The notes under the pieces were generated by a model. The model was not told the origin of the DNA. It worked only from the letters and a program-made list of their open reading frames with translations, and did not search any database. A stretch of 64,000 nucleotides of DNA from Nitrososphaerales archaeon (lineage in GTDB: Archaea > Thermoproteota > Nitrososphaeria > Nitrososphaerales > UBA213), in NCBI GenBank assembly GCA_965197925.1, contig CBDAOC010000020.1:384001-448000 (forward strand). Direction: 5' to 3'. Of this stretch, positions 4,372-14,983 are shown piece after piece. The stretch's first letter is position 1; every line of letters starts with the position of its first letter. A program made the translations under genes and the position numbers.

Positions 4372-4830
4372 CTAGTAGATCAATTTAGTAATATCTAAAG
4401 TTCTTGTGCAATACCTACACCTTAATAATGGATTTGCCTCATCTGTGACATCTATTATAGGTTTGATCTCTTCCTTGCTGTTAGTAATACATCTTGGGTT
4501 CAAACATCTGAAAATGTCTATGAATGCTGCTGGGAGCTTGACCTTTCTCTTTTCTATAACCTTGTAATCCCGTATTATGTTAATGGTAGCTTCTGGAGCC
4601 AGCAACGCTAGCTTATTGGTCTCTCCAGGTTCAAGGAGCTTATTCTCAACTTTAATTATATCCTTGGTCTCAAGTTTACTGCTCGGTACATTCAAGGCTG
4701 CTGTAATAACATTACCCTCTTTCCCAGTAATATTCAGGGCTTTAAGAACAACGAAAGCCATTCCAGGCTTTATGTGGTCTATGACAGTGCCTCCTTTAAT
4801 TCTCCGGACGAGAAGTTGAGCCTCAGACAT
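4372..4830 (-). CDS. pyrI: Aspartate carbamoyltransferase regulatory subunit
   Basis: GTVIDHI, KDIIKVE, Zn ligands CLNPRC...CRYC. Confidence 0.97.
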   Translation of the reverse strand: MSEAQLLVRRIKGGTVIDHIKPGMAFVVLKALNITGKEGNVITAALNVPSSKLETKDIIKVENKLLEPGETNKLALLAPEATINIIRDYKVIEKRKVKLPAAFIDIFRCLNPRCITNSKEEIKPIIDVTDEANPLLRCRYCTRTLDITKLIY

Positions 4831-4877: not shown

Positions 4878-5807
4878 ATGAACAATCGATTTTATGGCGT
4901 GGATATAGTTTCGATAAAGGATTTTAGCAAGAAAGAGCTTGACTTCTTGTTCAAATCTACAAATAAAATACAAAATATGCATCAAAACGAAAAAAGAGAG
5001 CTTGCTAGAGGAAGAATATTGGGTTATCTTTTCTTTGAGCCAAGTACAAGAACAAGATTGAGCTTCGAAGCAGCGATGGCGAGTATAGGTGGTAGTTCCA
5101 TTGGAATTACGGACGCAAAATCATCATCCATAGAAAAGGGAGAAAGTTTAACCGACACTGTTAGAGTAATTGATCAATATTCAGATGTAATTGTGCTAAG
5201 GAATCCATTGGATGGATCAAGTAGATATGCTGCGGAGATTGCAGAAAAACCTGTTATAAATGCAGGAAGTGGAACGGAGGAGCATCCAACTCAAGCAATG
5301 CTTGATCTCTATACAATATGGAAAGAAAAGGAAGGAATAGATGGATTAAAAATCGGAATTGTAGGAGATCTAAAATATGGTAGAACTGTATACTCGCTGA
5401 TTTACGGTTTATCTAATTACAAAGTTGAAATTTATCTGATTGCGCCATCATTGTTAAGGATAAGGGCAGAATTGATCCAAGAAATGAAACATAAGATCAG
5501 AATAGAGGAACATGGTGTTTTGAATGATGTTTTGAAGAACCTTGATGTTGTGTATGTTACGAGGATACAAAAGGAGCGGTTCCCTGATATTCTGGAGTAT
5601 GAAAAGGTTAGAGGAAGTTATACCATTAATGCCAAAATACTAGAAGGTGCAAAGAGTGATGTTATCGTGATGCATCCTTTGCCTCGGTTAGAAGAAGTAG
5701 ATCGTGATATTGATTATACTTTAAAGGCTAAATATTTTAAGCAGGTGAATTACGGAAAGGATTTAAGGGCAGCATTGCTTACATTAATCCTAAACAAAGG
5801 ATTTTAA
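4878..5807 (+). CDS. pyrB: Aspartate carbamoyltransferase catalytic subunit
   Basis: FFEPSTRTRLSF, HPTQ, HPLPR. Confidence 0.98.
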   Translation: MNNRFYGVDIVSIKDFSKKELDFLFKSTNKIQNMHQNEKRELARGRILGYLFFEPSTRTRLSFEAAMASIGGSSIGITDAKSSSIEKGESLTDTVRVIDQYSDVIVLRNPLDGSSRYAAEIAEKPVINAGSGTEEHPTQAMLDLYTIWKEKEGIDGLKIGIVGDLKYGRTVYSLIYGLSNYKVEIYLIAPSLLRIRAELIQEMKHKIRIEEHGVLNDVLKNLDVVYVTRIQKERFPDILEYEKVRGSYTINAKILEGAKSDVIVMHPLPRLEEVDRDIDYTLKAKYFKQVNYGKDLRAALLTLILNKGF

Positions 5808-5832: not shown

Positions 5833-8487
5833 TTAACCAGAAACGCAGCTACTCCAGCCGCATTCTATACAACAGTTGCACCCTTCCAGAAACACCATTC
5901 TGCCATCGCAAACAGGACAGGGATCTTTTTCGGTTTGCTTGTGTGGAATCAAAGGATGGGCTGGATCGTCACGTTCGCTCTTTGGTCTAATTATTTTTAC
6001 AACCTCGCCGTATACGAACTCGTCCTTGATGTTATTCGTTACATAATTGACAACGTATTCGCTTGGTAAGACCTCGAAATTCTTTTCCTTTGAGTCGCTA
6101 GTTATGTGCAAAACTTGCTCGTGCCTAGAACCATCTCTGTACACAGTTACACCTTTCAAGTCTAATTCATGTGCGAGTAAGTAGGAACATTTTACATCCT
6201 CTGCCGTCACATCATCTGGCATATTTATCGTCTTGGCAATTGCGTTGCTTATCCATCTTTGCCACACAGCTTGGGCCATCAGATGATCTGCCCAGTGCAT
6301 ATCCATAGCAGTAACAAAGATGTTTTGCATCCAATCAGGAATTCCATCAAGACCCTTTATAGATCCATAATTGGCAGATATTTTCTCAAGGAGTTCGTCA
6401 CTGTACAGTCCATGCTCCCTTAGTGTATTTTCAAATATCTTGTTGGTGTAGAAGAATCTACCAACTGTTACCCTCTTCTCGAATACCAGCGCAAACATTG
6501 GCTCAACACCATTTGAGCAATTGGCAATCATTGAAAGCGTTCCCGTTGGTGCAATAGTAGTAGTCTGTGAGTTTCTAATTCCAAAACGCATTATTTTGTC
6601 AATTAGTGAATCCCAATCGTATGAATGTTGATTCTTTGACAATTCGTAATAGCCTGAAATAGGTAACTTGCCATACACGTAGTCCGAATCGTTGAACATT
6701 GGAAATGACCCACGATTTCTTGCTATCTCAACACTCTCCTCCATACTGTAGTATGACAACGCTTCAGCAAGTCTTGCAGAAAATTCATATCCTTCTTTAG
6801 AATTGTATGGAATCTTTAGTTTAAACAGAAGATCTGCAAGCCCCATTATACCCAAACCAATTCTCCTAGAAAGTTTAGAAGCAATGTCAATCTCAGTTAC
6901 CGGATATTTGTTTGCATCTATTATGTTGTCAAGAAACCTTGTAGACAACCTCACCACTTGTTCATACCTTTGCCAGTCGAATTCAAATTCTCCATCTGCT
7001 CTTCGCTTTGCAAGATTTGCTAGATTAATCGAGCCAAGGTTGCATGATTCGTAGGGGTAAAGACTTTGTTCACCGCATGGATTTGTAGCTCTGATAAATC
7101 CTTGTGCCCTAGTCATCACGTTGTACTTATTCATATTGTCGAAGAACAGAATGCCTGGTTCTGCGCTTTTCCATGCACTTAATGCAATAAGATCAATCAT
7201 ATGATTAGCGTCAATGTGTTTTACAATGGAACCAGTTCTCGGATTTCTTAACGGATATTTCGTCTTGTTTTTCATTGCGTCCCAGAAATCCTCCCAAATG
7301 CCAATACTGACATTAAAGTTCTCAAAGACCCCAGGTGTAGTCTTAGAAGTAACGAATTTTTCAATGTCAGGATGCCATACTTCTAGTATTCCCATGTTAG
7401 CACCCCTCCTTTTACCTCCTTGCTTCACAACATCTGTTACGGTATCGATTATACGCATAAACGATGTTGGTCCGGATGCAACTCCTGACGTGGAAGCAAC
7501 ATTATCGCCCTCTGGTCTCAGATCTGAATAATTAATCCCTACTCCTCCACCAGATTTAAAAATCAATGCTGCGTCAGTAGATGATTTCATTATGTTGAAC
7601 ATATCATCCTTCATCTCAAGCACAAAGCAGGCTGAGAGCTGTCCCAACCTAGCACCTGCATTCATCATTGTTGGAGAATTAGGTAGGAAGTTCTTATCAA
7701 TCATCAACTCAATGTAGTCGTCGATGTGCTCTGCATACTCATCGAATTTACCATCTTCGAGCATCTGCAACAATTCTAGGATTGTTACTTTCATCTGACC
7801 ATGCGCTGATAGAACCTTGTAGATCATTAGCAAAGATTCGACATGCCATTTATTCAAAATATAGGATCCAATCTTGTACTTATTATCTAAATCATTTATT
7901 TGCTGCAGGTGCTCGGTGATCTCATCAATATTCTGCTTTATGCCTGAATTAAGACCAAATATTCTTTGATCCCGCATCATGTCTGGGAGTGCAACAATGA
8001 TGGCAACACGTTCAAACAGCTTTTTAGGTCCTTCTACGAATCTTCCATTTTCATCCTTTAATAAGTATCTGGATGCGAGCACACGCAGGGAGTTTACATC
8101 AAGAACCTTGTCAACATCGTCCAGTGAAGTTCGCTCAAGAACCTTCATCTTCTCCTCTCTTATCTTGCGCCTTTCATGCCTGTAAAGGATAAATGCCTTA
8201 GCTGTTTCAGATAGGCCTTGCTCTATTAGCACAGATTCTACCATATCTTGGATATCTTCTACGCTGGGTGAATTATTTTCATCACATCCTTGCTTTGCCA
8301 ACTTTTGCAATACTTTAACAACCAACTTTTCCGCCAACGGATAATCGGCTCTATTGGTAGCGACCAATGCTTTGTAAATTGCGCTTGAAATTTTTGAACT
8401 CTGAAAATCTACAATCCTACCATCTCGTTTCTTAATTTTACTAATTAAACTAGATAAATCATTTGAAATATCCGCAGTTCCCGCCAT
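5833..8487 (-). CDS. nrdJ: Adenosylcobalamin-dependent (class II) ribonucleotide reductase with N-terminal ATP-cone
   Basis: ATP-cone (IKKRDGRIVDF); PNSPTMMNAG, QLSACFV, TNPCGEQ, ESCNLGS, IAPTGT; C-terminal Cys cluster. Confidence 0.95.
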   Translation of the reverse strand: MAGTADISNDLSSLISKIKKRDGRIVDFQSSKISSAIYKALVATNRADYPLAEKLVVKVLQKLAKQGCDENNSPSVEDIQDMVESVLIEQGLSETAKAFILYRHERRKIREEKMKVLERTSLDDVDKVLDVNSLRVLASRYLLKDENGRFVEGPKKLFERVAIIVALPDMMRDQRIFGLNSGIKQNIDEITEHLQQINDLDNKYKIGSYILNKWHVESLLMIYKVLSAHGQMKVTILELLQMLEDGKFDEYAEHIDDYIELMIDKNFLPNSPTMMNAGARLGQLSACFVLEMKDDMFNIMKSSTDAALIFKSGGGVGINYSDLRPEGDNVASTSGVASGPTSFMRIIDTVTDVVKQGGKRRGANMGILEVWHPDIEKFVTSKTTPGVFENFNVSIGIWEDFWDAMKNKTKYPLRNPRTGSIVKHIDANHMIDLIALSAWKSAEPGILFFDNMNKYNVMTRAQGFIRATNPCGEQSLYPYESCNLGSINLANLAKRRADGEFEFDWQRYEQVVRLSTRFLDNIIDANKYPVTEIDIASKLSRRIGLGIMGLADLLFKLKIPYNSKEGYEFSARLAEALSYYSMEESVEIARNRGSFPMFNDSDYVYGKLPISGYYELSKNQHSYDWDSLIDKIMRFGIRNSQTTTIAPTGTLSMIANCSNGVEPMFALVFEKRVTVGRFFYTNKIFENTLREHGLYSDELLEKISANYGSIKGLDGIPDWMQNIFVTAMDMHWADHLMAQAVWQRWISNAIAKTINMPDDVTAEDVKCSYLLAHELDLKGVTVYRDGSRHEQVLHITSDSKEKNFEVLPSEYVVNYVTNNIKDEFVYGEVVKIIRPKSERDDPAHPLIPHKQTEKDPCPVCDGRMVFLEGCNCCIECGWSSCVSG

Positions 8488-8580
8488 CCCCTCTTACTTC
8501 GAAGAGCTGGTAATATTAAATCTTGCTAGTTCTCATGCGTCCTTAATAGTTAAGAAAAATTGTTGTTCTCTTTGGAAAAC

Positions 8581-10683
8581 TTACTGCGTTCGAAACACAT
8601 GTGGCGATTTGCACGCGATACATCTGTTAATTATGTCCATACTTTTTTGTCCGCAGTTACCACAAATATACACATTCACCCTTGGTCTGAAAAATGTTAG
8701 CAAATCCGCCCCACTTTCAATAGCAGCCTTTACATCAATATCATTCATAGAATTGTTTATATCCATAATTACAGAAATGCCGCCGGTGAAGAGTTTTTCC
8801 ATTAGATTGCATTCCATTATTACCGCTGATTCCTTCTCCATTTTGAGGACATCGTCGGCAGAAATAACTATTCCCTGCGAATATAGGCTTTCGATATTGG
8901 TCTGAGAAGTCTTTCCGTACCTTTCTATGTCCAAAGCTGCAAACCTTGAGCCGCTGTCATCTGTAATCATCGATACCCCTACGTCATCCCCACTTTGTTT
9001 ACCCTTTTCAAATGCAACGTCTACTGATGTTTTAATGACCTTCTGAAGGACATCGATGTAAGTGTTGTCTTCGTGACGCAGAATCTTTGCAACAGACCCT
9101 TGTAAACCGGTCAAGTTTACAAACAGATTTGTGCTACCCCTCTGCATAAACTGTGTGCTATTTGCTATTGCCGGTATCAATCCTTTCCTAGTGAGATCAG
9201 TCAGTGCCTTTTTGCGAATGGAAAGCGCTGTAACCGTAGGCCTAATCAGAAGAGCAAGTCTTGCCCTAAAATAAGTTTCATCCTTATTTGAATCGTATGC
9301 TAGTCTGGGTAGATTGATCGTTAACGATTGTAGACAAATAATAGTGCTTGACGTTGGTCCTTTAAGATTCTTGGAAATTCCAGTACAGTTCCTAACATGA
9401 TTTGAATCACCTGTTAGTGTTATCAAACCCCCCGTCCGAACTATGGAAGCTATTCTATCTGCATAGTCATTTACGGTACTATTGCTATATGATAAATTTA
9501 GTCCAATTCTTGGTATTGGGGTTGCATAAACATAAGTTTCATATCCTTCAAGTAATGCATCGACCTGTTTTTTATCCGCATCATCAATCGCAAGATTCAA
9601 TGATGTGATTGGGTGTCTTTGGGTATAGGAAGTAGTGCTAGAGCCAATTAATAGAGCCTTTGCAAACTTGTTCGCTAGTGAGCCATCAAATTCGTACTTC
9701 CCAAGTAGAGGTATTATTCCATCTACGCATATTTCAGTGGAAATTTCCCTGCTTAGCAAATGATTCAATATTACAAAAGAATTACAAAAGTCATCTACAC
9801 TCTTAACAGAACCTATCCTCGATACGCCCAGATATTTGCCATTCAGGCTAATTCCCTCCTCTACAAGTTCATTGAACTCAATGAATATAGAATCAGGTAT
9901 TAGCCCCCACATGCCAGGGTTGGAAATATTTATGTCACCGGAGAGATGCGAGTCTGCAATATCCTTAGGTAGTACGTTGAAAATCAAGTATTCTGAAAAC
10001 AAATTCTGTGCAGTCTTCACAACCAGACTTTCGATGCCGTTGTTGAGCTCATCCACGTTATTTATCATCTGTATCACATCAAACACTGGCATGCCTATAC
10101 GTGCAAGTTTATTTCTATACTCGTCATGCCCGTGTTCAGTCAGAACTGAATTAACCATCTCCCTTATCAGAGGCGTAGTCAAATATGCAGTCTGGAACTT
10201 GTAGATCTTGTTTTCGACCTCTTCAGTTATCTTTTGCGCAAGTTCCAATGGAACATTGGCTTCCCTTACTAAAGACTGAATAATCTTATGAGAATTAAAT
10301 TCTTCAATAGACTGATTAGTGGTTCTAACATACATCTTTCCACTCTCAATTATGGAGCGTTCCTCGATCTGCCTAGCAAGGCTAAGAACCAATTTTCCCA
10401 AATTGGTTATTGTATAACGCCTTTCAGCCTTATTCAAGGCAACTAAAGACTGTCGAAGCAATTTGCGTAAATGATAAGCAAACTTTCCACTCTCCTTCTT
10501 TGACTTGAAACCTGCTAATGCCTTTAATTCCGAATAGGTCAGAGGACCCTTGGAATTTAATATGCGTAATATGTCAATCCTATTCGGACTTGCCATTACA
10601 GAAAAGATCATTCTTACCCGTTTGGAAGCTGAATGGAGAACATCTCCCTTCTTCGACTCTACGTAATCACTACTCATTACCAT
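8581..10683 (-). CDS. ArsR-type wHTH + ATP-cone + degenerate class III RNR (NrdD)-like fusion protein
   Basis: wHTH (SPNRIDILRIL..TYSEL..SGKFAYHLRKL); ATP-cone (VRTT..IEEF..KIIQSL..LIREMVNSVL); NrdD-like DAHLSGDI-type and TINLPRLA segments; C-terminal CGNC..CIAC with no RxxGY after it. Confidence 0.8.
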   Translation of the reverse strand: MVMSSDYVESKKGDVLHSASKRVRMIFSVMASPNRIDILRILNSKGPLTYSELKALAGFKSKKESGKFAYHLRKLLRQSLVALNKAERRYTITNLGKLVLSLARQIEERSIIESGKMYVRTTNQSIEEFNSHKIIQSLVREANVPLELAQKITEEVENKIYKFQTAYLTTPLIREMVNSVLTEHGHDEYRNKLARIGMPVFDVIQMINNVDELNNGIESLVVKTAQNLFSEYLIFNVLPKDIADSHLSGDINISNPGMWGLIPDSIFIEFNELVEEGISLNGKYLGVSRIGSVKSVDDFCNSFVILNHLLSREISTEICVDGIIPLLGKYEFDGSLANKFAKALLIGSSTTSYTQRHPITSLNLAIDDADKKQVDALLEGYETYVYATPIPRIGLNLSYSNSTVNDYADRIASIVRTGGLITLTGDSNHVRNCTGISKNLKGPTSSTIICLQSLTINLPRLAYDSNKDETYFRARLALLIRPTVTALSIRKKALTDLTRKGLIPAIANSTQFMQRGSTNLFVNLTGLQGSVAKILRHEDNTYIDVLQKVIKTSVDVAFEKGKQSGDDVGVSMITDDSGSRFAALDIERYGKTSQTNIESLYSQGIVISADDVLKMEKESAVIMECNLMEKLFTGGISVIMDINNSMNDIDVKAAIESGADLLTFFRPRVNVYICGNCGQKSMDIINRCIACKSPHVFRTQ

Positions 10684-10815
10684 TTATCCTCTTTATTATT
10701 TTTCTTTGATTAAAGTCACTTTGTAAAAAATCTTTAGCTATATTGGATAATAAGTTTATCTGTTTCAAGATTAAACGCGGCGAGCATCCATAATTTCTAA
10801 TAAATGAATAAAAAA

Positions 10816-13459: not shown

Positions 13460-13822
13460 TTACGGAAGGGAAAGTACAATTCCCCTTTCATCATAGTTGA
13501 CCACAATCACTTTTGTGTTAATTGGTAAATTCTTCGGAGAATCTATTCCAGGTAAGAGACCAGAAATATTGAAGCCTGCATCCAATTTTACTACTACCCA
13601 AGCATACGGTTTGTATTTTTCATATTCTTCCGGAGCAACATTCTGTATCGAATATGTGATTATCTTCCCCTCACCTTTCACCTGTGTAGCGTCTAGTTCC
13701 TGTGAGCTACATTTGTTACAGAAGATAGTTGTTGCTATTTGCAAGTTACTACATCTCTTGCATTTATAAGCTAGGACCTTTCCGTTCCTCAATTCTGCCA
13801 CAAACCGTTCCCTATTGATCAA
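13460..13822 (-). CDS. DUF35-type Zn-ribbon/OB-fold thiolase partner
   Basis: CKRC..CNKC followed by OB-fold G.G.I.TYS; directly downstream of the thiolase. Confidence 0.9.
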   Translation of the reverse strand: MINRERFVAELRNGKVLAYKCKRCSNLQIATTIFCNKCSSQELDATQVKGEGKIITYSIQNVAPEEYEKYKPYAWVVVKLDAGFNISGLLPGIDSPKNLPINTKVIVVNYDERGIVLSLP

Positions 13823-13825
13823 TTC

Positions 13826-14983
13826 TTAGACCCTGCTGAATATGTGAACAGCGCAGCTAGCACCGGTTGCACCAAAGTTATGTGTCATTCCAATTTCGGG
13901 CTTCATAATTTGTCTTCTGCCAGCTCTTCCAAGTAATTGTTCATACACTTCAACTACTTGGCCAATGCCGGTTGCGCCTATTGGGTGACCCTTTGACTTG
14001 AGACCTCCAGATGGGTTTATAGTAACCTCGCCTTGGTTCAATTTCGTTAAGCCTTCTCTAACGGCCATCGCCGCAGACCCCTTTTCAAAGAATCCAAGAT
14101 CTTCTATATTAATCAACTCCGCAATAGTGAAACAATCATGAACTTCTGCAAAATCAATATCTTTCGGAGTAATGTTTGCTTGTTTGTATGCTTCTTGCAC
14201 GGCAGCTCTAGTGCTAGGAATTGTTGTAAGGTCCTCTCTTCCCTGAAGAGCAGCGGGAGAAGCTCCCCTCCCAGAACCGATTACATTTACAAAATCTGCC
14301 TTGTTCTTCTTTGCAAAATCTTCCGTACAAAGTAAAACTGCACTAGCTCCGTCTGAAAACGGGCAACAGTCAAGTAATTTTAGGGGGCTTGCTACTACTG
14401 GGGAGTTCATTACATCATCAACCGAGAGCTTTTTCTGTATGTGAGCTTTTGGATTCAAAACCCCATGATCATGATTCTTCACTGCGACCATTGCCAGATC
14501 TTCTTCAGTTGCCTTGAACTTCGTCAAATAGGCTCTTGCTATAGATGCAAATAATCCTGGGAATGACACGCCGCTCCCTCCTTCATATAAAAAGTCAGAA
14601 CAGTATGAAAATAACGTCGTTGACCTTCCCGTTCCAGTATGTGTTACCTTTTCTACGCCTACAGCTAAAACAACATCGTAAAACCCAGCTGCAACGTTAG
14701 CGTAAGCCTCTCTAAAGGCAATCGATCCACTCCCACATGCTGATTCTATGGTCAAACCAGGGACATAAGGTATGCCCAAATTGCTCATCACCATAGGAGC
14801 CAAGTGTACCTGATTGTCTGCCACGCCAAAAACGTTTGAGATGAAGCCATAATGAATATCCTTAGGTTCGATGTTTGCACTCTTGATAGCATCGTTGGCA
14901 GCATTTACAGCAAGATCAACAACATTTTCTTTCAATTTACCATACATTGTGCTACCAGCACCCATAACACAAACTTTGTTCAT
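13826..14983 (-). CDS. Thiolase (acetyl-CoA C-acetyltransferase, archaeal/SCP2-type)
   Basis: ESACGSG, EVHDCFT, NPSGGLKSKGHPIGATG. Confidence 0.95.
   Translation of the reverse strand: MNKVCVMGAGSTMYGKLKENVVDLAVNAANDAIKSANIEPKDIHYGFISNVFGVADNQVHLAPMVMSNLGIPYVPGLTIESACGSGSIAFREAYANVAAGFYDVVLAVGVEKVTHTGTGRSTTLFSYCSDFLYEGGSGVSFPGLFASIARAYLTKFKATEEDLAMVAVKNHDHGVLNPKAHIQKKLSVDDVMNSPVVASPLKLLDCCPFSDGASAVLLCTEDFAKKNKADFVNVIGSGRGASPAALQGREDLTTIPSTRAAVQEAYKQANITPKDIDFAEVHDCFTIAELINIEDLGFFEKGSAAMAVREGLTKLNQGEVTINPSGGLKSKGHPIGATGIGQVVEVYEQLLGRAGRRQIMKPEIGMTHNFGATGASCAVHIFSRV

Follow-up and report, generated by a model that had tools for sequence, protein, structure and literature searches.

The window, a stretch of 64,000 nucleotides from a Nitrososphaerales archaeon, contains a gene for a putative regulator (P0001) next to nrdJ, which encodes a class II ribonucleotide reductase (RNR). 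The features of the locus are given in Table 1. As stated in the preliminary description of this DNA, the two genes are co-oriented and 93 bp apart, and nrdJ is intact (737 bits on TIGR02504, cut-off 400).

Table 1. Features of the regulator–nrdJ locus (positions in the window)
Feature	Position	Strand	Basis or remark
pyrI	4372-4830	-	End of the cluster regulator–RNR–pyrB–pyrI, conserved synteny
pyrB	4878-5807	+	End of the cluster regulator–RNR–pyrB–pyrI, conserved synteny
nrdJ, class II RNR with ATP-cone, 884 aa; likely target gene	5833-8487	-	
Putative nrdJ BRE and TATA	8514-8527	-	Alignment of nine same-family intergenic regions; assigned by eye
Second conserved element upstream of nrdJ	8528-8537	-	Alignment of the same nine regions
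Candidate nrdJ operator, degenerate GT(C/A)AA-N5-TTGAC copy	8549-8563	-	Aligned relatives
Gene for wHTH–ATP-cone–dead NrdD protein (P0001, 700 aa), candidate regulator	8581-10683	-	Domain and fold searches
NrdD-type Zn ribbon of P0001 (C674, C677, C688, C691)	8611-8664	-	Sequence, alignment
Class III RNR barrel without catalytic residues, P0001 residues 213-670	8674-10047	-	Alignment, fold
S265 codon of P0001, at the beta-A Cys position	9889-9891	-	Alignment
ATP-cone and linker of P0001, residues 117-200	10084-10335	-	PF03477
ArsR-like winged HTH of P0001, residues 26-100, recognition helix GKFAYHL	10384-10608	-	DUF7347, HTH_20
Putative regulator-gene BRE/TATA, abutting the box-like site	10709-10722	-	
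Box-like site at the regulator's own promoter	10723-10737	-	Pattern tuned on same-family set

Based on Pfam annotation, residues 26–100 of P0001 match DUF7347 (E 5e-10) and HTH_20 (E 7e-8), residues 117–189 match the ATP-cone PF03477 above its cut-off (E 3e-11), and an NRDD domain is recognized with E 4e-16. The NCBIfam NrdD model gave 38.6 bits, far below its cut-off of 326. The winged-HTH (wHTH) fold of the N-terminus is backed by Pfam, by the AlphaFold model and by a profile search, in which it resembled the structures of HlyU, NolR and ArsR (E 1e-4 to 6e-4). This likeness to ArsR/SmtB regulators and DUF7347 is weak: the score on the ArsR/SmtB model NF033788 (23.8 bits, cut-off 55) is too low for assignment, and the HTH of P0001 is joined to a 600-aa sensor body. 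The AlphaFold model (pLDDT 92.7) had class III RNRs as its best matches, including all top hits with Foldseek and VIA, and the comparison revealed the 10-stranded barrel of that class. The NrdD structures of T4, T. maritima, P. copri and S. thermophilus share the fold with Z 25–29.5; on T4 NrdD (1h78), 443 residues were aligned with Z 29.5 and rmsd 3.0. A phmmer search of P0001 against PDB sequences gave no match, whereas profile searches reached NrdD with E 1e-33 to 1e-43. Thus, the preliminary description was right about the order of wHTH, ATP-cone, NrdD-like barrel and Zn ribbon, as well as about the motifs DSHLSGDINI and TINLPRLA.

The same description held that the catalytic apparatus has been lost, and this was borne out. 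P0001 stops nine residues past the Zn ribbon, before the glycyl-radical loop, and its alignment with T4 NrdD ends at T4 residue 577, right before the radical-bearing Gly580 (PMC2795772). Since PDS of P0001 aligns with PFC of active NrdD, S265 stands in place of the beta-A Cys. None of the 146 HTH-bearing homologues has the beta-A Cys, the loop-2 Gln or the NxN flap, and only three keep the second His of HxHD, whereas each of these is present in 48/48 active NrdD. An independent set of 102 sequences had no NxN, no HxHD and a single finger GCR. The two finger Cys columns are occupied in 3/146 and 0/146 homologues; P0001 itself carries C433 in the finger loop, a residue found in only three of the 146. 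A GC relic of this loop is seen in 16/146 (14/76 Bathyarchaeia and 2/29 other members) and in none of the ammonia-oxidising archaea (AOA). Gly occupies the glycyl-radical column in 5/146 homologues, none of which has an intact loop; two representatives, in which HxHD and the beta-A and finger Cys are all absent, retain a string resembling RxxGY beyond the Zn ribbon. The NxN flap, HxHD, loop 2 and phosphate loop, which form the NrdD substrate site according to PMC11226230 and PMC4493059, are invariant in the 48 active NrdD and deleted or degenerate in the regulator family, where the alignment left no invariant set of polar residues at this site. The four Cys columns of the Zn ribbon are retained in 39/41 AOA sequences and 72–73/76 Bathyarchaeia. 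No NrdG was found in the window, as noted earlier, nor above either cut-off in the whole genome, which is 98.7% complete (best scores 48.6 bits against 131 and 30.2 bits against 126). The regulator gene gave the only NRDD match of the genome, with no intact NrdD above cut-off, and there was no match to the NrdR model TIGR00244. From its sequence, P0001 is almost certainly not an active RNR.

The wHTH and the cone are the most strongly conserved parts of the family. Mean identity among the 41 AOA sequences is 0.98 for the wHTH, 0.90 for the cone and 0.59 for the barrel. H71 and Y90 of the wHTH are invariant (102/102), and the cone residues R120, E127, F129 and K/R133 are kept in 99, 95, 100 and 100 of the 102 sequences, respectively. 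In Bathyarchaeia, cone identity is 0.74 among the regulators, higher than the 0.56 of active NrdD. E127-x-F129-xxx-K133 of P0001 has the same spacing as E56, F58 and K62 of the NrdR cone, as given in PMC9110341. The regulator cone is predicted to bind adenine nucleotides, which is likely. The additional reading of individual dNTPs at the RNR specificity site, proposed in the preliminary description, is doubtful: loop 2 is missing, and across classes no stretch is less conserved than the helix A/B region. The active-NrdD columns H205, H212, K215, Q251, Q254 and E259 are not retained in AOA; K294 is kept in 37/41 AOA, 63/76 Bathyarchaeia and 34/102 overall, and an AOA-specific hairpin is conserved (K283 and R289, 41/41).

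The family is present in Nitrososphaerales, Bathyarchaeia and Asgard archaea. Its gene often lies immediately upstream of the resident RNR gene, nrdJ or nrdD, in the order regulator–RNR–pyrB–pyrI. The linkage to nrdJ was confirmed at 30/30 loci (L001–L030) and at 22/30 held-out nrdJ loci, where nrdJ is directly downstream. Genome scanning was performed with a 24-row Bathyarchaeia-centred alignment, the 102-row alignment being too diverse, and only Bathyarchaeia were among the 80 loci kept of 574 matches. In these 80 loci, nrdD or nrdJ was found at most three genes away in 31, and no RNR gene was nearby in 49, many of the contigs being short. An RNR gene was likewise not nearby at 65/79 loci of a further set and at 26/32 phylum-wide loci. 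The preliminary description mentioned similar thaumarchaeal genes annotated as anaerobic RNR; the family is far wider than Thaumarchaeota and often not beside an RNR gene.

In a quick unrooted tree of 61 sampled rows (wHTH trimmed; one NrdD row, L055, without its C-terminal motif), a fully supported branch parts the regulators from active archaeal NrdD. The Bathyarchaeia regulators are 30–35% identical to the adjacent NrdD over its length. A C-terminal query could not tell the two apart, and the search was redone with the N-terminus; this query did not detect the regulator in 15 Bathyarchaeia genomes (f55/f58), in G312, G341, G400 and G425, or in a further 21 genomes from eight other families.

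The region upstream of nrdJ carries a conserved inverted repeat, GT(C/A)AA-N5/6-TTGAC, which presumably differs from the NrdR box. The repeat is degenerate, with a spacer of 5 or 6 depending on the set of promoters, and the copy in the window, which ends 28 nt before the TATA, is among the weakest. The distance from box to TATA is 28–30 nt in 29/41 and 39 nt in 7/41 AOA promoters; the box is missing from 5/41 AOA and 12/20 held-out promoters. The palindromic EM score was 94–108 against 28–42 for shuffles. When the 20 promoters of held-out lineages were searched de novo, GGTcAA-N6-TtGAcC emerged at just one of the four widths used (45.8 against 25.9 and 33.8). It should be noted that related promoters have motifs in common by descent, that the patterns were tuned after inspection and that conservation of the box does not identify the binding protein. 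A sigma-70 scan was uninformative for archaea and was discarded.

In Bathyarchaeia, TGTYAAW occurs on the sense strand of 19/30 regulator–RNR spacers versus 35/406 controls. A stronger, different palindrome, TAYA-N6-TRTA, lies at the nrdD promoters of this group (20/30 versus 9/373) and is absent in Nitrososphaerales; therefore, another factor may act at these promoters. Neither element is present in roughly half of the nrdD promoters of regulator-bearing genomes. TGTYAAW was present in 9/19 nrdD promoters of genomes with the regulator and in none of ten genomes without it, a contrast given little weight because the lineages are not independent. At the regulator's own promoter, a box-like site was found in 8/8 same-family, 4/20 held-out (0.54 expected) and 5/33 Nitrosopumilaceae-type regions (1.16 expected), where autoregulation is possible, or merely an extended core promoter.

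Based on the above results, we suggest that P0001 is probably a transcription factor that acts as a dimer, senses ATP/dATP and controls the RNR gene, as predicted from sequence and structural models. That the family is DNA-binding is very likely, and that its target is the RNR gene is likely, though with somewhat less assurance. This nucleotide-sensing factor would descend from an old duplicate of an archaeal class III RNR that gained an N-terminal wHTH, lost both substrate site and radical chemistry, and retained the barrel as a dimer scaffold. The cones would sit at the dimer interface beside the wHTH domains, so that bound ATP or dATP would set the spacing of the recognition helices, and the dimer on the inverted repeat would tune nrdJ transcription to the dATP/ATP ratio. 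A homodimer model of residues 12–470 scored 0.66 (best control 0.00), with at least 89% of contacts shared between runs and pLDDT of at least 73; the mark was reached by 20/30 solved pairs and 1/23 single chains, and the pass may reflect likeness because NrdD dimers are solved. The cone forms much of the interface in this model. The box precedes the BRE and stays in helical phase, which makes activation at low dATP about as likely as repression or slightly more likely. A more elaborate scenario is unlikely to hold as a whole: an RNR turned factor before the TACK/Asgard split, reading ATP/dATP by its cone together with a remodelled dimer-interface pocket, would activate the RNR operon through the upstream box in helical phase with TFB, repress its own gene through the BRE box and have followed the switch from nrdD to nrdJ.

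A nucleotide-sensing factor could also have its main targets elsewhere, either in pyrimidine synthesis (pyrB, pyrI, pyrH) or in a broad regulon that may be linked to replication; the RNR gene would then be one of the targets or a mere neighbour. The most persistent neighbour is indeed pyrB (30/80 of the loci kept from 574 matches, and 32/79), also at the Lokiarchaeia-like loci L295–L297, which have no adjacent RNR gene; at L048 and L068, the OTCace neighbour is argF rather than pyrB, the one at L050 is unassigned, and none of the three was counted as pyr. Moreover, pyrH is divergent to the regulator at L031, L033 and L042, dcd lies behind L053, and the wHTH identity of 98% across AOA would exceed the constraint normally needed for one site. 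However, pyrB is convergent and at the far end of the RNR-gene slot, as expected for residual synteny, and its promoters had no box elements (0/30, 1.0 expected) and no palindrome A (0/69), the de novo search giving a TATA-like motif alone. On this evidence, pyrB and pyrI were rejected as box-carrying targets. When 1850 upstream regions of the source genome were scanned with the consensus, five matched (shuffles, 2.6), those of nrdJ and of four unrelated genes. The exact-pattern search of 61 genomes gave mostly noise, with 15 extra sites and no clear regulon. We consider it quite unlikely that the main targets lie elsewhere; weak additional targets may exist.

Still less probable is a pseudo-enzyme that modulates an active RNR or aspartate carbamoyltransferase at the protein level according to nucleotide levels, with the wHTH as a docking module. 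The whole barrel and Zn ribbon are retained, and at 30–35% identity to the adjacent NrdD, heterodimers of the Bathyarchaeia members are conceivable; but the partner varies between nrdD and nrdJ products, whose dimer interfaces differ (PMC9531940), the recognition helix is nearly invariant while the RNR partner changes, and a conserved DNA box precedes nrdJ. Finally, an active anaerobic ribonucleoside-triphosphate reductase, the annotation given in the source records and in most databases, or new chemistry in the old barrel, is close to refuted: the GC relics, the two RxxGY-like strings and C433 speak for it, but they are confined to few members, the substrate site retains no invariant set of polar residues, and no NrdG reached cut-off in the source genome.

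To our knowledge, only NrdR has been described as a transcriptional regulator of RNR genes, and our literature search found no description of the present family. NrdR occurs in few archaea, with six RNRdb entries (PMC2795772). According to PMC9110341, NrdR likewise combines a DNA-binding domain with an ATP-cone with the conserved E-x-F-xxx-K, and its genes lie next to RNR genes that have inverted-repeat boxes upstream. The same source describes NrdR as 140–220 aa long, with a Zn ribbon at the N-terminus for DNA binding and boxes that overlap the start site, whereas the regulator family has 545–800 aa, a wHTH, a box upstream of BRE/TATA and a whole dead NrdD barrel, which NrdR does not have. 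The best reading is that the regulator works like NrdR yet is not NrdR. The earlier idea of an NrdR analogue built from a repurposed RNR is partly supported: its core withstood the comparative checks (homologues without an intact glycyl loop, no nrdG in the source genome, conserved linkage to nrdJ) and gained a candidate operator, whereas the position of the box fits activation better than NrdR-like repression. With NrdD, the regulator model shares the ATP-cone, the Zn ribbon and the helix A/B dimer contacts; it differs in the added wHTH and in the missing glycyl loop, beta-A Cys, finger Cys, NxN, HxHD, loop 2 and phosphate loop. A further parallel is the Nudix-related NrtR, in which, according to PMC2330246, an enzyme-like domain annotated as an enzyme is fused to an HTH, reused as effector sensor and controls a nucleotide pathway; NrtR is bacterial, of unrelated fold, binds ADP-ribose, acts on the NAD pathway and has a C-terminal HTH.

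The family is probably an archaeal switch for DNA-precursor supply, and it provides a candidate RNR-gene regulator for ammonia-oxidising archaea, Bathyarchaeia and Asgard archaea. If this is true, a catalytic subunit of RNR has come to serve as the sensor for its own gene. With the protein named and both its ligand residues and a site of 15–16 bp predicted, the question is directly testable. In addition, "anaerobic RNR" matches in these genomes should not be equated with anaerobic DNA synthesis. RNA contigs gave no coverage of the intergenic region or of pyrB/pyrI, which proves nothing; parts of the regulator gene are covered in 4/4 RNA runs of one study, with DNA carry-over possible, and RNA contigs also cover nrdJ.

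Judging from its sequence, the 700-aa protein (a candidate regulator, below 'the regulator') is not an enzyme. Its NRDD match is weak and scores far under all NrdD cut-offs, and class III RNRs are the best matches to its predicted structure (pLDDT 92.7). Superposition on T4 NrdD (Z 29.5, rmsd 3.0, 443 residues) stops at residue 577, before the radical glycine, given as Gly580 (PMC2795772), which agrees with the lack of a glycyl-radical loop pointed out in the preliminary description. The alignment set comprised 146 HTH-bearing homologues, of which 41 were from ammonia-oxidising archaea (AOA), 76 from Bathyarchaeia and 29 from elsewhere, plus 48 active archaeal NrdD proteins; the NrdD motifs were located via solved structures and published accounts (PMC11226230, PMC4493059). 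The beta-A Cys and the loop-2 Gln occur in none of the 146 homologues, the second His of HxHD in three and the phosphate-loop Glu in eight, vs 48/48 NrdD in each case; the NxN flap, kept in 48/48 NrdD, is deleted in 146/146. A relic of the finger-loop GC motif was seen in 16/146, and an RxxGY-like string in 2/101 representatives, the latter two missing the other catalytic residues. The Zn ribbon is retained in most HTH-bearing homologues. Short members of 545–600 aa named Aigarchaeota (L048, L050, L068, P0104 and P0115) have no Zn ribbon, and their group is neighboured by argF and NAC genes, not by RNR genes.

Coordinates of the regulator, its neighbours and associated elements
Feature	Position	Strand	Remark
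Regulator ORF, 700 aa	8581-10683	-	
Winged HTH (wHTH) of the regulator	residues 26-100		
ATP-cone of the regulator	residues 117-189		
nrdJ, 884 aa	5833-8487	-	
Candidate nrdJ box, window copy	8549-8563		degenerate, yet in register
Element related to ATGAA-N-TTCAT	8528-8537		adjoins BRE
Helical ORF, 144 aa	10816-11250	-	upstream of the regulator
ORF with two CxxC motifs, 53 aa	11474-11635	-	motifs read by eye
Thiolase and ChsH2/DUF35 pair	13460-14983	-	
Class II-like RNR, 590 aa	L070:6843-8615		same genome, contig C16
NrdD, short frame	L055:8889-10931		3' of the regulator

Both the regulator gene and nrdJ lie on the minus strand, 93 bp apart, as described earlier. The regulator is the sole NRDD match in the whole genome (98.7% complete). 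NrdG, noted earlier as absent from the window, did not exceed the cut-off anywhere in the genome, and NrdR was not found. The second, class II-like RNR has no ATP-cone, its top matches in a phage collection are phage/halovirus RNRs (30–38%), and it represents either a provirus or bin contamination (5.4%). The RNA runs containing the stretch are four sponge metatranscriptomes, whose contigs cover parts of the regulator gene and nrdJ, which suggests that both are transcribed.

In a quick, unrooted tree, 46 regulator rows were separated from 15 NrdD rows with support of 100, and Bathyarchaeia members are 30–35% identical to NrdD along its length; on this basis, the sequences fit a single old duplication. 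All 43 genomes from the large AOA family gave a match, as did 8/8 from the window's family, and the phylum tally was 228/301 genomes, the weak matches among which may be NrdD. The named sources of members are Bathyarchaeia, Aigarchaeota, Lokiarchaeia, Odinarchaeia, Baldrarchaeia and Atabeyarchaeia; a Nanobdellota Atlas cluster (score 0.87) is a lead only. Searches with an N-terminal query did not find the regulator in two Bathyarchaeia families (15 genomes) or in eight other families (21 genomes). The family, labelled in databases as anaerobic RNR, ArsR regulator or HTH protein, is real, widespread and apparently undescribed. No description was found in the open literature, and subscription papers or supplements could hold a mention; the available text of two RNR family surveys mentions no HTH (PMC9531940, PMC9669993), and that of RNRdb does not mention Nitrosopumilus (PMC2795772). 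The family belongs neither to NrdD nor to NrdR, its mode of action would be NrdR-like, and it is built in the same manner as NrtR (PMC2330246).

Mean identity among AOA was 0.98 for the wHTH, 0.90 for the cone, 0.58 for helices A/B and 0.59 for the remaining barrel, vs 0.33, 0.56, 0.16 and 0.19 between AOA and Bathyarchaeia. Cone identity is higher in the Bathyarchaeia regulators (0.74) than in active NrdD (0.56). R120, E127, F129 and K/R133, each present in 95–100 of 102 representatives, are spaced like K50, E56, F58 and K62, the reported nucleotide contacts of NrdR (PMC9110341). The dNTP specificity site looks decayed from the alignment: one lysine is often retained, six residues near-invariant in NrdD are lost and loop 2 is gone. 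The original suggestion that individual dNTPs are possibly read there finds little support. AOA members have a hairpin of their own with invariant K283 and R289, and a remodelled effector pocket may exist.

The predicted homodimer scored 0.66 (best control 0.00), with 89% contact agreement between runs and a pLDDT of 73; the homodimer mark was reached by 20/30 solved pairs and 1/23 single chains. Among the parts at the modelled interface are the cone, helices A/B and R190-P199, an invariant stretch. The pass may reflect likeness to known dimers, since NrdD dimers have already been solved.

In AOA, nrdJ is preceded by a shared sequence, GT(C/A)AA-N5-TTGAC (the box), an imperfect inverted repeat for which EM on 25 of 41 regions scored 86–108 vs 25–42 for shuffles. 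The distance from box end to TATA is 28–30 nt in 29/41 regions, and in 7/41 it is longer by one turn, at 39 nt, under spacing patterns tuned after inspection of these regions; the box is missing in 5/41. A fresh search in 20 held-out promoters from other Nitrososphaerales families returned, at one of four widths, GGTcAA-N6-TtGAcC (45.8 vs 25.9 and 33.8), and the consensus pattern matched 8/20 (0.72 expected). In Bathyarchaeia, TGTYAAW occurs in 19/30 regulator-RNR spacers vs 35/406 controls, 22–24 nt before a different palindrome. This palindrome, TAYA-N6-TRTA, is strong, spans 16 bp, lies 8–9 nt before BRE in 20/30 Bathyarchaeia regulator-nrdD spacers (L110-L189) and is absent from Nitrososphaerales. 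A box-like site abutting the BRE of the regulator gene itself (8/8 same-family, 4/20 held-out and 5/33 other regions) may be core promoter. Many Nitrosopumilaceae-type nrdJ promoters (L017-L019, L023-L030) carry, just 5' of the box, the palindrome ATGAA-N-TTCAT, possibly the site of a second factor; a related element occurs in the window's family.

The most likely reading, which we hold with fair confidence, is that the dead barrel would keep two subunits joined, that the geometry of both wHTH domains would be set by ATP or dATP bound in the cones, and that the dimer would bind the candidate repeat and so tune nrdJ. Activation of nrdJ at low dATP is favoured very slightly over repression, because the box lies upstream of BRE, where archaeal activators such as CopR (PMC7830388) and TFB-RF1 (PMC5937170) act.

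The preliminary observation of linkage to nrdJ holds across loci: nrdJ is immediately 3' of the regulator in 30/30 loci (L001-L030) and 22/30 held-out nrdJ loci. In Bathyarchaeia, this slot is occupied by grx-nrdD. The order regulator-RNR-pyrB-pyrI is common to Bathyarchaeia and the window, with nrdJ in place of nrdD in the window; there, pyrB is convergent and pyrI divergent. Among 80 Bathyarchaeia loci kept of 574 matches, an RNR lay within three genes in 31, pyr genes were found in 30 and either in 51; a second locus set gave 14/79, 32/79 and 44/79, and a phylum-wide sample had an adjacent RNR in only 6/32 loci. A pyrimidine or wider regulon as the regulator's role is rather unlikely; the box and the Bathyarchaeia spacer elements are missing from pyrB promoters. 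A modulator acting at the protein level is less probable again, readings outside all of these have a slight chance, and an active enzyme is scarcely credible given the residues lost.

In four loci of one AOA genus (L225, L226, L278 and L288), pyrB stands immediately behind nrdJ in the same direction and so may share its transcript. The short frame of the L055 NrdD ends before the glycyl motif, through a frameshift or an assembly error. The Zn ribbon is the DNA-binding part of NrdR, which lends interest to the 53-aa ORF; a similar gene lies directly 5' of the regulator in Nitrosopumilaceae-type loci. Matches of the 144-aa ORF to CdvB (ESCRT-III) are weak, none of them reaching the cut-off. In distant lineages (L046, L058, L060, L066, L067, L301, L302 and L304), the regulator is likewise preceded by the thiolase and ChsH2/DUF35 pair.
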